Shown piece after piece: positions 50,204 through 64,000 of a stretch of 64,000 nucleotides of DNA. Location: contig CBDCCZ010000039.1 of NCBI GenBank assembly GCA_965215005.1, positions 42,572 through 106,571 of the forward strand, given 5' to 3'. Source of the stretch: Kofleriaceae bacterium (GTDB lineage Bacteria; Myxococcota_A; Polyangia; Haliangiales; Haliangiaceae). Position 1 is the first letter of the stretch. Every line of letters starts with the position of its first letter. The translations under genes and the position numbers were made by a program. The notes under the pieces were generated by a model. That model did no database searches. It was not told where the DNA came from and saw nothing but the letters and a program-made list of their open reading frames with translations.

Positions 50204-51391
<1,188 letters not shown>

Positions 51392-51396
51392 ATCCC

Positions 51397-52545
<1,149 letters not shown>

Positions 52546-56907: not shown

Positions 56908-57990
56908 TCAAAGCCCTTCGTCGCCCTCAAAATCGTAGATGGCAACGTCGGTCGCCTGAGCGCGCTGCACGTGACGGTGCAGGGTCGTGCGTCTGGCCGC
57001 GGCAATCTCGCGGCGAATGTCGGCGCAAGAACGCGAGGGTACGGCGATATGGCAGATGGGGTCGCCGGGTTTGACGGCAGGCATCGTCGGCATGCCGATG
57101 ATGATGCCTTCGATCGGCGACTTCACCGTATGCGCCGATCCGGTGGCCAGATTTTCCACCGTTGCTACCGCCGCGCCGCGAGCGAGAATCGCGCCCGGCC
57201 CGACGTGAAAACGCAACAGCCCGCCGCTCGGCGAGCGCACCCACAACGTCTTGGTCGCAACGGTTTGATACGCGGGCGGCTCGAGCGGTCCTTCGAGCAT
57301 GCCGAGGTGGCGCAGCACGTTGTGCACCCCGCGGACGCCGATGCGCACCACCCACGGCTCGATCTTTAGCGACTCGCCGCCTTCGAGCAAGATCGTCAAG
57401 CAACCGGACCGGCACGCAACAGAGCGCAACGTTGCCGCGTTGCCGCGTTGATTGACGATGACCTCGCAGCCAAAGGCACGTGCCAGCGGCTCAATCCCCT
57501 CAATCGCCAAGTTGGCGCGGATATGGGGAAAGTTGGTCCGTCCCGTCGCCGCCGTGTGCAAGTCGATCCCGTAGTCGCAGTTGGTGATGATCTCGCGCAT
57601 GAGCGTCGCGGCGATACGTGAGGCCATGCTGCCGCGCGGGCTTCCGGGGAATGAACGATTGAGATCGCGGCGATCGGGCAAGTACCGCGCGTGGGCTTCG
57701 AACCCCAATACATTGATGATCGGCGCCAGCACCACCGAGCCGCGCGTGAGCTCGAGCTGCTCGTTCATCAAGTCGCGAACGATGCCGGTGCCGTTGAGCT
57801 CATCGCCATGCACGGCCGCCGAGACGAACACCGCGGGACCGAGCTCGCGGGCGCGGATGACGCGCAGTGGAATCTGCACCGGCACTCCGGTGTAGCGCTC
57901 GCTCACCTCCAAGCGCAGATCGTTCGTAGTGCCCGGCTCGATTTCCGTGCCTGCAATCCGCAACACGCGTTGCGCCTTGACCGGACTCAC
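56908..57990 (-). CDS. Succinylglutamate desuccinylase/aspartoacylase (M14-like) family deacylase, copy 2
   Basis: AAVHGDELNG, DLNRSFPG, GIDLHT, LEGG; C-terminal barrel-sandwich; AGGAGG RBS and GTGA overlap. Confidence 0.92.
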   Translation of the reverse strand: MSPVKAQRVLRIAGTEIEPGTTNDLRLEVSERYTGVPVQIPLRVIRARELGPAVFVSAAVHGDELNGTGIVRDLMNEQLELTRGSVVLAPIINVLGFEAHARYLPDRRDLNRSFPGSPRGSMASRIAATLMREIITNCDYGIDLHTAATGRTNFPHIRANLAIEGIEPLARAFGCEVIVNQRGNAATLRSVACRSGCLTILLEGGESLKIEPWVVRIGVRGVHNVLRHLGMLEGPLEPPAYQTVATKTLWVRSPSGGLLRFHVGPGAILARGAAVATVENLATGSAHTVKSPIEGIIIGMPTMPAVKPGDPICHIAVPSRSCADIRREIAAARRTTLHRHVQRAQATDVAIYDFEGDEGL

Positions 57991-58985
57991 AGCACCTCCT
58001 CGAGCGGCGTTGCGCGAACGACTCCCAGGTGAAGGATGCGCGCCCCGGTTTGCGCGACTGGATTGGTGCTCTTGCCGACCACGATGCCGTCTTCGGGGGC
58101 GTGATAGGTCCGCACTACGCGACCAAACAAGTCATAGATTTGCGCAATGACGTCGCCCTGCCGGACGATATCGGTGATGCCGGGAAACACGTGCAGAATG
58201 CCGCCGGTGTCGGTATAGAGCCAAAACGAGCGCGCGCACTCCACCGTTGGCTCATCGTCTTCGTCGCCGCTCGAGCGCTCCTCGATCATCTCGAGGTGTG
58301 CGAGCGCCGCGAGAATTCCGCGCCGGGAGGCGCGAATGAGACTGCGCTGAAATCGCTGCGGATCGCCCACCTCCACGGTGATGGCGTGAATGCCCATGTC
58401 AGCAGCGGCGCTGCGCAGCGTGCCGTCGCGACCGCGATTGTGCACGATGATTTGCGCGCCAATCAGGCGCGCCAGCATCGCCGGCACCGGCAGCGATAGA
58501 TCGGCGCGCACGTAAAGCGAGTTGACGCGCCCAAAGCTGGCGGTGTGCAGGTCGATGAGATAATCGAAGCGCCGCACGATGCGGGTGAGAAAACGGCTCG
58601 CGTAGACCTCGGCTTCGTTGCCGCCTTCGCGTCCTGGCATGACCCGGTTGATGTCCATGCCATCGCTGAACTCGCGTTGCTGCTGCAAGAATCCGGGCAA
58701 GTTGACCACCGGAATCGCCACCACGTCACCGCGCAGCTCCGTGGGATCGATGGAACGAAACAAGCGATGAATGGTGGGAATGCCGTTGAGCTCATTGCCG
58801 TGCACGGCGGCGGTGATTCCCACGACCGGCCCCGCCTCGCTCCCACGCGCCACCATCACCGGCACGGCGATGGGATTGGCAGTGCCATCACGGGCGATTT
58901 CGATGGTGAAGTGGTGATAGGTGCCGCGGGCGAGGGGCTCGAGCTCCAGGCGGCTATGCATGGGTATCGGCTCGTCGAGGCTCAA
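57987..58985 (-). CDS. Succinylglutamate desuccinylase/aspartoacylase (M14-like) family deacylase, copy 1
   Basis: [28 protein letters not shown]; start overlaps the upstream stop (TTGA). Confidence 0.92.
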
Positions 58986-60448
58986 CCGCAGAGCTCCTTG
59001 AGTAGCAGCTCATCATCGTTTAGCGACTTGAAGAGCCGCGTCTTGAGGCGGCCTTTTTGCGTGATGAGATCTTGCGCCAGCCGATCGATGGCGATCACCG
59101 ACAGCACGGTCTGGATGAAGCCTTCGATGAGGTCGTCGAGGCCGATTCCCAGCAAGTTGAAGTCGCGCCGATCCATGAGCATCAGGCGGTCTGCATCGCT
59201 TTGCCAGCCGCCATCGGCGAGCTTGTGCGAAAGGTTGGTGCCGAGCATGTCCCACGATGAAGCAGCAGGACTGAGCGTTTGCGCCAATGGCAAGCGAGCA
59301 CGGCGGGCGTAGATCGCCAGCGGCCTGAAGCCCTCTTCGGAAGAACACACCATCATGCGAACGTCGGCCACGTAAATCTCACCGCGTTTACTCGGCACCG
59401 TGCCCACGTGATAGAAGCGGCCGCGGCGCGACAGTGAGCTCCAGTTGTGGTTGCCGATCAGGCTCTGCACGATGAACCGCTCGTAGCGGTAATCGGTGTC
59501 CATGAACGCGGCAAGCTCGTCTTCATTGGTGATGGTAAAGACGCCCTGCCCGGCATTGGCGTACGGCACTTTGACCACGGCGTGACCACCGAAGCGCTTG
59601 ATCCACAGCGGTATCTCCTCGCGCTGCAGATCGCGAATCGTCTCCGGCGTGCGGATCTCAAGGCCCGAGCGAATTAGCTCGGCGTTGTAGAGGTCATAGG
59701 CCTTGGCGGCAACGAGCTTATTGCGCCCCCCGGCCAGACAGCCGATGACGGGATTAAAGATGAGTGTCTTGGTTTGGACGGGAATGCGATCCCATGGCCG
59801 CTGGGTCACGTATCGCAGCGCCGCCCGCACCGCACGCCACTGGCCCTCGTCGTCGCGCACTTGCAACACGCCGTCGTCGAACCGTGCGGGTGCATTTGCC
59901 TCACCGGTGGGAAACGGGGTGAGCCACACCGGCTCTTGCATCAGGTCGGCCAAGACCGCGGCGTAGCCCGAGGCTTCCGTGCTGTTCTTGTCGTAGAGCA
60001 CCGCGAGCTCGCCCCGCGGCAGCGCGCGGCCCTTGAGCAGCGGAACGAAGGCATGCTCGAGCAGCAGCCGATAGCCGCCCTGCTCCTGATCGTCACTGAT
60101 GAGCGGCATCGACTTGTTGCCCGAGGGGCACGAGTTGGTCTCGATGACGATCATCTGGCGATTGCCAGAGGCGGTGGTGACGTGAAAGAGGTCGGCGCCT
60201 GCCCAGCGCAGAAACTTGGCCTTGTACGCCAGAATCTGCTCGAGATGCTCCGGCACCACGCGCGGGTGCAGGTGGCAGAAGCGACTCACCACCCGCTCGG
60301 TGCTCATGCGCATGAAGAACCCGACCAGCGGATGCACCTGCGCGTTGAGAACCCGCGGATAAAAGTGCGCGCGCGGCTCGAAAGCACCCGGGTCTACGCG
60401 GCGCGCGTGGGCGGCATACAGATCTGTCGCGGAGAGATTGGTCTCCAT
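58982..60448 (-). CDS. Circularly permuted ATP-grasp amide/peptide ligase
   Basis: N-terminal GADLF...IETNSCPSG, then [39 protein letters not shown]...TNLS. Confidence 0.8.
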
Positions 60449-60563: not shown

Positions 60564-62132
60564 TCAATCGCGCGACGCGGTAGCAGCCGGCTCGATCGCT
60601 GCTGCGGAGCTCCAGTCGAGATGCAGGCGTCCGTCTGGGAAGATCTTACCGGTCTTGCCGAGCGCCGTGGAGCCGTTGCCATCGATGCGGGCGTGGACGC
60701 GTGTTGCCGGTTGCAACACCGCATCGCGCCCGCGCACGAAGCTCTGCTCGCGAACGATCGCCAAATATGCCTTGTTGAGCGCCATCGCGCGCTCACGACT
60801 GGGAAACAACAGCCAGGCAAGGTCGCGGTCGCCACCGCTGGCGGCGCGCCCAACCGCGGCTTCGTCGAGAACGTCGTCAGGAAAGAATCGCGTCAGCAAT
60901 TCGGCATTGGCGCGGGTTTCGTCACCGCCGCGCACGCGGCGAAAGTAGGTGAGGATCTCGGGCACCAAATGCCCAGCCTGCGGCCGATCGACGAGCCCGC
61001 GCAGGTCGTGAACCCGCCAGCCATCGGCGCCGGGCACTTTGCGCGGAAACGCGAACGTGCCGTCGACGAGCACTCCAATGCCGCCGTGACAGCCCATGCA
61101 GAACCGATGCTCTTCTTCCGTCTGCAAGCGCAAGCGACCCGAGGCATCTTCGATGAAGCCCTGCAGCTGCCAGCCGTACTTGGTGATGAGCCCCGCCATC
61201 TCCGAGCCGCGATAGACCGGCGTGCGACCGGCTTCTTTGTCGTCGATCTCGCGCTCCGAGCGGTTCTGCAGCCCCCAATCGTCGTGCAGCTCGACCTTGC
61301 GCGAATAACGCAGCTCTTTCATGCGATGCGCCATCTGCGTGGGCGCATCGGGATCGAGGTACCGCACCGAGTGGAGAAACTCAGTGCCTTTGGGATACAG
61401 CGACCAAATCACGTCTACCGATGCAGCGCCACCTACGAAGTGCGTGGGCAGCTCCGCGGGTGGCTCGGCAGTCGCAATGGCCCGCTCGAGGATCGCGAGA
61501 TTCTGCCGATATACGGCCTGTGACGGCAGCCCCGCCGCCGTTCGCCGGAACGGCGCAGGCAGGCGGATGAACACATCATCGGTGCTGCCGTTGGTCGGCC
61601 AGAAGCTGCCCAAGAATGGCTGATAGCGGATTGCGCGCCAGCCAGAGCCGTCGCGGGCAAAGCCTTCGGCATCGAAACCGCGCGAGAAATCGAGATCAGG
61701 AACGTAACCGGTGAAGTCTGCGCGGGCAGACAATGCCTCACGCAGCGGCGCATAGTTGTCGCCGCGAACGTACTCGAGCATGGCCGCGTCGCTCATCGAG
61801 GCGATGAACGGCCGCCGGTCAGCAAACAGGTTGGTCCAGTGATTGGTGAGGGCTACGTCCGAGAACGCGTACTCCTCCTGCAGCTCGACGTCGGTCCAGA
61901 AATGCTTGCCAACGGGTTTAGTGTGGCATACCCAGCACGGGTTGGAGTCGCCACCGGTCTGCGTGTAACACATCGGCGGAACCGCGGCTTCGAGGTTGCC
62001 GACCTGGCCGTGCATCGACGCCGCGAAGGCGAGCGGATCGTAAGATCCGCCCGCCGCGGGTTGGGGAGAGGCCTGCCGGCATCCGCTCACGAGAGCAGCG
62101 CTGCAGAGGACCAAGAGCAGGATCGGCTTCAT
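60564..62132 (-). CDS. Hypothetical lipoprotein with two CxxCH motifs, downstream of PhoX
   Basis: Signal MKPILLLVLCSAALVSG-C; CWVCH and CMGCH; 16 nt after the PhoX stop. Confidence 0.8.
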   Translation of the reverse strand: MKPILLLVLCSAALVSGCRQASPQPAAGGSYDPLAFAASMHGQVGNLEAAVPPMCYTQTGGDSNPCWVCHTKPVGKHFWTDVELQEEYAFSDVALTNHWTNLFADRRPFIASMSDAAMLEYVRGDNYAPLREALSARADFTGYVPDLDFSRGFDAEGFARDGSGWRAIRYQPFLGSFWPTNGSTDDVFIRLPAPFRRTAAGLPSQAVYRQNLAILERAIATAEPPAELPTHFVGGAASVDVIWSLYPKGTEFLHSVRYLDPDAPTQMAHRMKELRYSRKVELHDDWGLQNRSEREIDDKEAGRTPVYRGSEMAGLITKYGWQLQGFIEDASGRLRLQTEEEHRFCMGCHGGIGVLVDGTFAFPRKVPGADGWRVHDLRGLVDRPQAGHLVPEILTYFRRVRGGDETRANAELLTRFFPDDVLDEAAVGRAASGGDRDLAWLLFPSRERAMALNKAYLAIVREQSFVRGRDAVLQPATRVHARIDGNGSTALGKTGKIFPDGRLHLDWSSAAAIEPAATASRD

Positions 62133-62148: not shown

Positions 62149-63999
62149 TTAGCGTGCCGGCCAGGTCGAGTACGCGCTCTCCCCCGGATGCTGCACGTTG
62201 AAGAACACCGTGCGCATGCTCGGCGAGAACGCCGGACCAGTGGCCTCCGAGTCGCTCGGGCCCGCGATGACGCGGAATGCGCGGCCATACGCTGCAGTGG
62301 CCGCATGAGCGGGGTCGAGGTCGAGGTAATAGACGCCGTCGGCGTGGCCGTTGGTGCCCACATTGCCGTCAGTGCCAAACCACACCCCGCCATCGCGGTC
62401 GATCATCAGGTTGTCGGGGTCGGCGGCCTCGAAGGTCGGGTCGCCGTCGCCGCTCGTCCCATTCCAGGCAGCCCAAAACTCGAATGTCGTGGAAGCGCCA
62501 GGATCGGCCGGATTGGCCTCTTCGATGGTGAAGATGGCGCCGGTGCGATCGTTGCGCTTGGGCGAGCTCTGCTCATGCTCCGCGGGGTCGAAGACCACAC
62601 CGTCTGCATCGAGCGCTACCTTGCGCGTGTGATTGGTGAACGCCACATAGAGGCGCGGGGTGCCGCTCGGGTCATTGGGATTCCACTCGACATCCTCGGG
62701 TCGATTGAGCTCGCGAATACCGAGCTTGTTGGCAGTGGTGAACAGCGCCCGACGCGCGTCGTCTTCGCTGGCATAGGCACCGAGGCGGTTCCACGAGACA
62801 TCTTGCAGCGCCTGCCCCACTGTCTTGCCGGGCTCGCCCAGGGCATCGGCATTGGGAACTACGTCGGTGCTGTCAAAGCTCACGTGCACCCAGCGGCCCG
62901 CGCCACGACGTGCCTCGGTCGGTAGCGAGTCGGTGCCGGCGAGATTCATCCCGGTGGCGTTGTCGAGGTCGGCAAAGTGGGCAACGTATAGATCACCGTC
63001 GGCGAGCAAGTTGCGAATCTCTGCTTTGCTCATGCCTGCGGTGAACGGCGCGCTCGAGACGAACTTCCAGATCCGGCCACCGCGGCGGTCATCGCCGCTG
63101 TACATCACGATCGGCTGTCCGGCGACTAGATCAAAGCTTCCGTCGACCGCGAAGGTCGCGTTCTCCCAGCGAGCGCGGCCGATGGCGCCAAGCTTTTGAT
63201 GACCCTCGCCGCTCGCGCCATCGTACGCCGCATCACTGGTCATCCCGGGATCCATCTCCACGAGATAGCCATAGAAATCACGGCGATGGCCGGCGTTGGG
63301 GTCGGTGCTGCGCGAGAAGTCGCCCGACGGCGAGGGCTCGGCGGCGAGCTCGATCGTCGAGCCTGCGTCAAACCCTTGGCCGGTCTGCAGCTGCTGATCA
63401 CCATTCCAAGCGGTCTCTAGGTCGCCGTAGTAGTACTGGACGTTCTCTTCGGCGGTGATGATGGTGCCCCAGGGCGTCTGCGCGCCGGAGCAATCGCCCA
63501 TGATCCCGGCGACCACGCCCGGAGCGAGCTCATTGCCCTCATCATCGTGATCTCGTGCCGCTAGCTGCATTCCCGTGACGGCGACGAGGGTGCTACTGCT
63601 CGCGTCGTAGCGCGTTGCCGAAGCGCTGCGATCCACCGTCCACTCGGCGGTGGCCGGGTCCATGACGATGCGAAACCACGAGCCTCCCACTTCGCGTTTT
63701 GATTGCGCGATATAAGTATTGACCTCGTCCTGCGGCCAGCTCGAGGCGCCAATCTGGTTCATCAACACGCCCATGAAGCGCAGCCACTGCGCGAACGTGC
63801 GCTGCTGCCCCGTCGGCGCGCTGGAGGTGGTCGGCTGGTCATTCGAGATGTACTCGTGATTGACCCACACCCATCCCGCGGTGTCGTCGCCACGCCATTG
63901 CGGCGCCATGCCCTCTTGTTGCCAGCCCTGCCCAAAGAAGGCGATGTAGTCGCCGTTGGCGCCGTACCGAGGCGACTCCACTGTGTTGTCCCAGGTCAG
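62149..63999 (-). CDS. phoX: PhoX (DUF839) family alkaline phosphatase, partial (5' end outside window)
   Basis: WVNHEY, DCSG..TPWGT..TAEEN, GR..WEN, GDD, NRPED, PDN, TDG, EATGP.FSP, NVQHPGE; frame open to the window edge. Confidence 0.88.
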   Translation of the reverse strand: MTWDNTVESPRYGANGDYIAFFGQGWQQEGMAPQWRGDDTAGWVWVNHEYISNDQPTTSSAPTGQQRTFAQWLRFMGVLMNQIGASSWPQDEVNTYIAQSKREVGGSWFRIVMDPATAEWTVDRSASATRYDASSSTLVAVTGMQLAARDHDDEGNELAPGVVAGIMGDCSGAQTPWGTIITAEENVQYYYGDLETAWNGDQQLQTGQGFDAGSTIELAAEPSPSGDFSRSTDPNAGHRRDFYGYLVEMDPGMTSDAAYDGASGEGHQKLGAIGRARWENATFAVDGSFDLVAGQPIVMYSGDDRRGGRIWKFVSSAPFTAGMSKAEIRNLLADGDLYVAHFADLDNATGMNLAGTDSLPTEARRGAGRWVHVSFDSTDVVPNADALGEPGKTVGQALQDVSWNRLGAYASEDDARRALFTTANKLGIRELNRPEDVEWNPNDPSGTPRLYVAFTNHTRKVALDADGVVFDPAEHEQSSPKRNDRTGAIFTIEEANPADPGASTTFEFWAAWNGTSGDGDPTFEAADPDNLMIDRDGGVWFGTDGNVGTNGHADGVYYLDLDPAHAATAAYGRAFRVIAGPSDSEATGPAFSPSMRTVFFNVQHPGESAYSTWPAR

Positions 64000-64000
64000 C

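Follow-up and report, generated by a model that had tools for sequence, protein, structure and literature searches.

A permuted ATP-grasp protein family co-inherited with an AstE/AspA-type M14 hydrolase: a candidate module for making and breaking an acyl-glutamate in a Kofleriaceae bacterium

ATP-grasp ligases form amides from a carboxylate that is phosphorylated by ATP and then attacked by an amine. A circularly permuted topology is established for the Methylobacillus flagellatus protein 3k1t (an ATP-grasp-type GshA, PF08886), glutathione synthetase, 3n6x (Mfla_0391), GspS, and Cp1B; GspS couples synthesis with an amidase, and the permuted relatives that have been characterised act on small molecules. 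Cp1B, YgiC, and YjfC belong to these small-molecule enzymes (PMC12568646). In the unpermuted RimK of Pseudomonas aeruginosa, K141, E178, S212, and N213 contact ADP, and N262 and R189 keep the final glutamate in place (PMC10092738). In the present study, a three-gene operon was analysed within a stretch of 64,000 bp (the window) from the Kofleriaceae bacterium assembly GCA_965215005.1 (contig CBDCCZ010000039.1, positions 42,572 to 106,571). The operon encodes a permuted ATP-grasp protein, here termed LIG, and two AstE/AspA-type zinc hydrolases of the M14 group, M14a and M14b. LIG and M14a are tentatively interpreted as a module that makes and breaks an acyl-glutamate, a reading in which we place slightly less than even confidence.

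The conserved motifs of LIG were located at residues 84 (GADLF), 102-110 (IETNSCPSG), 240 (GGRNK), 268 (PET), 291 (VVKVPY), 300 (GQGV), 326 (IVQ), and 362 (DVR). A preliminary description of this DNA had placed the metal-binding segment before the NK, PET, VVK, IVQ, and D.R motifs, and these positions confirm that order; two further motifs, YARR at 380 and GTNLS at 403, had been overlooked. Residues D86, E103, K244, K293, Q328, D362, R364, and R382 were invariant in all 56 diverse homologs compared, and N105 was kept in 54 of them. An AlphaFold2 model based on 63 homologs had a pLDDT of 92.8 and a pTM of 0.93. The ten best Foldseek matches of this model were all to 3k1t (E 2.9e-9), yeast glutathione synthetase, 3n6x, Escherichia coli GspS, and Cp1B. 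In a wide structural search, 3k1t was again the best match (Z 16.7, rmsd 4.2, 327 aligned residues, model residues 55-462, 12% identity), with the alignment taking in the long helix 437-460. The unpermuted ArgX, RimK, and GshB covered only residues ~145-460 of the model, through their chain residues 1-230, 1-242, and 1-266, respectively; because of this limit, the C-terminal ExN segment of the unpermuted ATP-grasps has no sequential partner in LIG.

Profile-profile comparison with 13 RimK proteins gave two crossed blocks, in which LIG 78-109 corresponded to RimK 240-266 (E 2.4e-4) and LIG 240-334 to RimK 96-183 (E 5.9e-4). Each block is weak by itself, and both agree with the LIG model. Within them, D86, E103, and N105 aligned to RimK D248, E260, and N262, and K293 fell in the block matching the lysine strand of RimK. 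The fold search and the crossed blocks together demonstrate the circular permutation that had been proposed earlier, and the predicted structure has a permuted rather than a standard ATP-grasp topology. LIG is almost certainly a permuted amide ligase. The alignments with GspS, YgiC, and the eukaryotic glutathione synthetases end at residues ~424-438 of the model, whereas that with 3k1t reaches 462; the aligned ranges suggest a 3k1t-like break point. By motif, R364 of LIG may correspond to RimK R189, and T404-N405 to S212-N213. A candidate kinship with permuted TTL/YheCD proteins, an idea suggested by the motifs, was rejected, as the fold search ranked TTLs below 3k1t, ArgX, and GspS.

LIG scored below every Pfam and NCBIfam cut-off, including those for RimK, CP_ATPgrasp_1/2, and GSP_synth; the scores against the RimK models were 13.6 bits (cut-off 21, Pfam) and 15 bits (cut-off 143.4, TIGR00768). 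The ATP-grasp Pfam cut-offs were reached by none of 53 LIG homologs and the NCBIfam cut-offs by none of eight. Neither LIG by itself nor a 42-sequence profile gave a significant match among PDB sequences, and the fold search of the model against viral models gave no match at E ≤ 0.001. With 3k1t/PF08886, LIG shares the permuted fold, the N-terminal position of the metal-binding strand pair, and a seemingly similar break point, but it is only 12% identical, has no PF08886 match at E ≤ 0.1 (E ≤ 0.01 for the 53 homologs), and is partnered by an M14 hydrolase. Eukaryotic glutathione synthetase, GspS/TryS, YgiC/YjfC, Mfla_0391, and Cp1B are likewise permuted ATP-grasp amide ligases, but they are 9-16% identical to LIG, which does not match their Pfam models, and judging from the aligned ranges the break point of the glutathione synthetase/GspS/YgiC group looks different. 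The CHAP amidase domain was found neither in LIG nor among the domains listed for 13 longer homologs. RimK, LysX-ArgX, MptN, and CofF contain the same catalytic motifs in crossed order and gave the best, though weak, sequence matches, but they are unpermuted and of ~300 aa. No TTL or CP_ATPgrasp_1/2 match was obtained for LIG or the 53 homologs, and the alignments of TTL/TTLL chains began no earlier than model residue 145 (Z 8.2-10.7). The LIG family would work in the same way as permuted amide ligases already known and as make/break pairs such as GspS, yet it is not recognised by the models that define them.

Gene neighbourhoods were counted in the best 80 of 557 LIG loci from GTDB, a set in which close relatives are over-represented. 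An M14 gene was present in 56 of the 80 loci, within 1.5 kb of LIG in 55, and in 41 of the 58 LIG loci having at least 3 kb on both sides. Among 251 genomes of the class to which the window belongs, LIG was detected in 41 and M14a (E ≤ 1e-75) in 38; all 38 carried LIG, and M14a was found in none of the 210 genomes without it; related genomes are not independent, but the pattern is patchy across families. These counts bear out the earlier expectation that LIG homologs are linked to M14 genes. M14a was lacking in three LIG genomes (G353, G387, and G417), and the LIG match in G417 was only partial. Among 41 genomes of close relatives, ten contained LIG, and in the nine loci fetched from them M14a adjoined LIG in eight and M14b in none. 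The order including genome G041, whose locus L025 is titled Saprospiraceae, yielded a strong LIG match in 19 of 201 genomes; 18 loci were fetched, of which 16 contained M14a and 14 a GshB-like ligase. This second ligase, missed by the preliminary description, is a recurring third member elsewhere (22 of the 80 loci). Three such partners that were scanned were nearest to PRK12458 or GshB and below the GshB cut-offs; a GshB-like paralog was not found in the genome of the window, which is 92.8% complete. LIG and M14a very probably belong to one pathway. Alpha-E, transglutaminase, and NTN peptidase genes were not recognised by eye in the recurring clusters of the 80 loci, and no profile search was aimed at them. 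In addition, a separate cluster of a long RimK-like gene and a GCS2 gene was noted at G000:C6:200072-202758 (L085), and L015 and L051 have this pair close to LIG.

Both hydrolases matched the Pfam model AstE_AspA_cat (118 bits for M14a and 121 bits for M14b, cut-off 25) and were 35% identical to each other. The zinc triad, R104 and N113 (M14a numbering), and the catalytic glutamate are kept in both; H62, E65, H147, R104, N113, and E205 were invariant in 88 of 88 M14 proteins, and R114 is present in both window proteins. They share the zinc H-E-H triad, the R/N/R carboxylate site, and the catalytic glutamate with the AstE/AspA hydrolases DoeB/EutE (6twm), 3cdx, CphZ/AotO, and aspartoacylase, but fall below the cut-offs for DoeB, AstE, and aspartoacylase (for DoeB TIGR02994, 78 and 89 bits with a cut-off of 402.7), and the a-type clade is tied to LIG. 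Only a weak profile match (E 2.4e-4) was obtained to 8ein, which we take to be CphZ. In CphZ, R102, N112, and R113 bind the C-terminal carboxylate of the substrate, and an acidic pocket (D222/E223) selects Arg or Lys (PMC9974463). Since the R/N/R residues match this carboxylate site, the hydrolases are expected to act on an N-acyl amino acid whose carboxylate is free. R191 was invariant in all 74 a-type and all 14 b-type proteins and aligned to an aspartate in 6twm (DoeB), an enzyme that takes a substrate with a basic side chain; this charge swap would therefore point to Glu or Asp as the leaving residue. A substrate ending in an acidic C-terminal residue is modestly favoured.

In the proposed module, LIG would activate a small carboxylic acid with ATP and couple this acid with an acidic amino acid (glutamate being the likeliest), and the co-travelling zinc hydrolase M14a would release the C-terminal acidic residue again. 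Where the third gene is a GshB-like ligase, that enzyme would add one more residue; in the lineage of the window, M14b, likely moved into the operon, would trim C-terminal glutamates. A small molecule is the fairly likely substrate, rather than a protein. The identity of LIG to 12 named eukaryotic homologs (41-57%) fits a small fixed substrate, and the weak family matches of diverged LIG members were mostly to the glutamate ligases RimK, MptN, and CofF (best E 3e-8, far below cut-off). The make-and-recycle scheme suggested earlier suits the LIG and M14a data.

Several observations weigh against this proposal. No M14 gene was seen in the available stretch of 24 of the 80 loci, and the PP2C, Ser/Thr kinase, and SET genes near LIG (in 13, 6, and 7 of the 80 loci, respectively), many of which a single group of close relatives contributed, would rather suit a protein modification. 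Pairs of a GshB-like ligase and M14a occur away from LIG in L156, L157, L159, and L160, whose genomes have LIG elsewhere. A stand-alone M14a-type gene without an adjoining ligase (G000:C42:218156-219094, L081; 54% identity) is sister to the window M14a in the tree (support 0.76). Because M14a thus occurs apart from LIG, both beside the GshB-like ligase and alone, it may act on the product of the second ligase. Global profile alignment of LIG with RimK and GshB did not map the substrate pocket. At the carboxylate-binding position of the NR motif (R114), Arg occurs in 35 of 74 a-type proteins and His in 33. The placement of R191 in the side-chain pocket is an alignment-based suggestion; the residue presumably matches Arg168 of aspartoacylase. 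Of Arg168 it is stated only that it stabilises the binding of N-acetylaspartate (PMC5412892).

The second hydrolase has a different origin. In a tree of 88 M14 proteins, labelled by best score to the window pair, 74 a-type and 14 b-type proteins formed separate clades (support 0.976 and 1.0) at a distance of 3.1 substitutions per site. The window M14b was sister to L141 and L142 (support 0.997); these two closest relatives (54%) adjoin rimK in genomes without LIG. M14b-type genes were detected in 16 of the 251 genomes, nine of the 41 with LIG and seven of the 210 without, which counts mildly for some link. Twelve of 15 M14b loci were fetched: rimK was present in eight, rimB only in one, and neither in three, and LIG was absent from all twelve. 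M14b thus groups with the M14 genes of rimK operons. The tandem LIG-M14a-M14b occurred in none of the 80 related loci and none of the nine close-relative loci; two M14 open reading frames (ORFs) were seen in three of the 80, one being a split gene and two having an M14b-type gene several kb away. The genome of the window carries rimK and a rimB-like gene on contig C9 without an adjoining M14 gene, and the window M14b is the only M14b-type gene found in it. The simplest reading would be that a rimK-linked hydrolase was relocated into the LIG operon; the two-hydrolase arrangement is a local rearrangement and adds little. An unannotated protein of 287 aa, in which a Cys motif near the N-terminus is conserved (L082:5340-6203; L097:8553-9413), precedes rimK in the genome of the window and directly follows M14a in close relatives; it is possibly a cysteine peptidase linking both systems. 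The literature searches returned no paper on a link between RimK and M14 (aspartoacylase) operons, and the terms desuccinylase, deacylase, and carboxypeptidase were absent from the RimK/RimB papers searched for them. The M14 hydrolase carried by the rimK operons of these bacteria is a candidate exo-deglutamylase.

Four other explanations were weighed. LIG might glutamylate the tail of a protein, in the way that RimK modifies RpsF and TTLLs modify tubulin, with the M14 enzymes as deglutamylases of a reversible modification. No small target gene recurs among the neighbour clusters of the 80 loci, it is difficult to name a protein target common to myxobacteria, fungi, and amphioxus, and those permuted relatives topping the fold search that have been characterised work on small molecules. 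This explanation is unlikely, but it was retained because of the link to RimK (M14b, of rimK-operon descent, is coupled into the LIG operon, and 4 of the 80 loci have RimK no more than 6 kb from LIG) and the recurring PP2C, kinase, and SET neighbours; the excess of M14b-type genes in LIG genomes points the same way.

Doubtful as well is LIG as an alternative, GshA-like gamma-glutamyl ligase, whose product would be completed to a glutathione-like tripeptide by the GshB-like neighbour and degraded by M14a. The closest structure, 3k1t, is deposited as a putative gamma-glutamylcysteine synthetase and aligned over a longer span than the other permuted ligases, the Atlas lists a PF08886 cluster at 0.91 with 159 shared features (a lead only), and the GshB-like gene recurs (22 of 80 and 14 of 18 loci); neither LIG nor the 53 homologs, however, matched PF08886, and identity to 3k1t is low. 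A thiol product is unlikely: the genome contains a GshA candidate of the plant type (402 bits, cut-off 463) as well as a GshB that passes its cut-off, no GshB-like paralog was found in it, and the three GshB-like partners scanned from other loci are below the GshB cut-offs. A non-thiol gamma-glutamyl peptide overlaps with the acyl-glutamate explanation. The idea that LIG is the missing GshA of this genome was rejected.

It is improbable that LIG makes a polyamine conjugate in the manner of glutathionylspermidine synthetase or YgiC/YjfC. GspS, YgiC, and YjfC are among its fold matches, and a carboxy(nor)spermidine dehydrogenase-like gene and a decarboxylase gene (nspC above cut-off) lie 4.4 kb from the operon (window 50204-52545, plus strand), but carboxyspermidine genes were found in none of the 80 other and none of the 18 further loci. 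Arginine decarboxylase-like, agmatinase, and deoxyhypusine-synthase-like genes were near LIG in 2 of the 18 (L118 by HMM, L121 by eye). AstE/AspA enzymes, as described for CphZ, bind a free C-terminal carboxylate (PMC9974463), which is absent from a polyamine amide, and the hydrolases have Arg instead of Asp at the DoeB pocket position. Least probable of all is the dedicated, diverged hydrolase pair acting sequentially or as a heteromer on the LIG product, as the preliminary description had it: both genes are translationally coupled with all catalytic residues kept, an LIG-M14a-M14a tandem exists in one other genome (L155), and the invariant pocket Arg of both means that M14b could act on the same product, but the separate, distant clades, the M14b relatives beside RimK in genomes without LIG, and the absence of the trio from the 80 related and nine close-relative loci weigh against it.

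The features of the operon are listed in Table 1. The ORFs and the two 4-nt stop/start overlaps reported earlier were found, GC content was even across the region, and both gene junctions were bridged by contigs of run X1, which is not independent support because X1 may be the source sample. The operon scan found no sigma-70 promoter-like sites, and terminator-like sites were at chance level (6 versus 3.6 expected). An unannotated lipoprotein-like gene of ~519 aa with two CxxCH motifs (window 60564-62123, minus strand) ends ~115 bp upstream of LIG and lies downstream of a PhoX phosphatase gene (62149-64000, minus strand); it had no Pfam or NCBIfam match and was absent from the recurring neighbours at other loci.

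Table 1. Features of the LIG operon (window coordinates) and key residues of its products.
Feature	Coordinates	Strand	Details
LIG, permuted ATP-grasp protein	58982..60448	-	488 aa, ATG start
M14a, AstE/AspA-type zinc amidohydrolase, conserved LIG partner	57987..58985	-	332 aa, TTG start
M14b, AstE/AspA-type hydrolase, rimK-operon clade, local operon addition	56908..57990	-	360 aa, GTG start
Start/stop overlap TTGA (LIG stop, M14a start)	58982..58985	-	4 nt
Start/stop overlap GTGA (M14a stop, M14b start)	57987..57990	-	4 nt
LIG key residues			D86, E103, N105 (metal-site motif); K244, K293, Q328; D362-x-R364, R382, T404-N405
M14a residues			H62, E65, H147; R104, N113, R114; R191; E205
M14b residues			H61, E64, H145; R102, N111, R112; R189; E203

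At least 3,573 LIG homologs were found among 8,000 candidates scored, and 792 representatives (50% clustering) matched the family at E 0.001. Those of the best 120 homologs that have a name are all 'hypothetical', and the titled best matches were Myxococcota-type records (65-73% identity). The bacterial members come from myxobacteria, Bdellovibrionota, Saprospiraceae, and Planctomycetes. Many carriers, in a list biased to close relatives of the query, belong to lineages that we take to be predatory (Myxococcota, Bdellovibrionota, Bradymonadia, and Saprospiraceae). The eukaryotic span, also missed by the preliminary description, covers early-diverging fungi, amphioxus, bdelloid rotifers, clade I nematodes, Naegleria, and a red alga, with named homologs from Podila, Ramicandelaber, Rotaria, Trichinella, Trichuris, Entophlyctis (a tandem duplicate), Bifiguratus, Fonticula, Cyanidium, Naegleria, Scutellospora, and Branchiostoma. 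The deep nodes of the LIG tree were poorly resolved, and no direction of transfer was drawn; one clade (support 0.999) comprised the 13 included GTDB loci, the window LIG, Cyanidium, and one unnamed sequence. An intact member of 450 aa (42% identity) was found on a giant-virus contig (IMG/VR GVMAG, L106:572-1924), whose available ORFs include no M14 gene. Two homologs (P0295 and P0296) contain long intein-like inserts that start with Cys and end with Asn before Ser/Cys; they interrupt the most conserved LIG motifs, at the N105/S106 junction and just ahead of C237, and gave no Pfam or NCBIfam intein match. Apparent fusions to CTF18 (Trichinella, Trichuris) and Sm/B56 (Bifiguratus) were seen in P0150, P0155, P0294, and P0297-P0300 and may be merged gene models, and P0301, titled eukaryotic, resembles a merged bacterial LIG-GshB-like-M14a operon. 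The literature searches found no paper on the family; most subscription literature lay outside them, and the amidoligase survey of Iyer et al. 2009 may list it.

The locus adds a genome-level LIG-M14a profile, a rimK-linked origin of M14b, and a hint from the pocket charge. Possibly, and in our estimate with appreciably less than even confidence, it represents a new ligase family whose product is a small acidic peptide or acyl-glutamate not yet discovered, has its own M14 turnover clade, and has RimK glutamylation wired in here. The near-perfect co-inheritance of LIG and M14a offers a direct experimental way in. Single-domain families that number thousands of members and lack a family model, yet show 41-57% identity when a bacterial protein is compared with those of fungi, animals, and protists, are rare; such conservation points to a conserved metabolite or modification.

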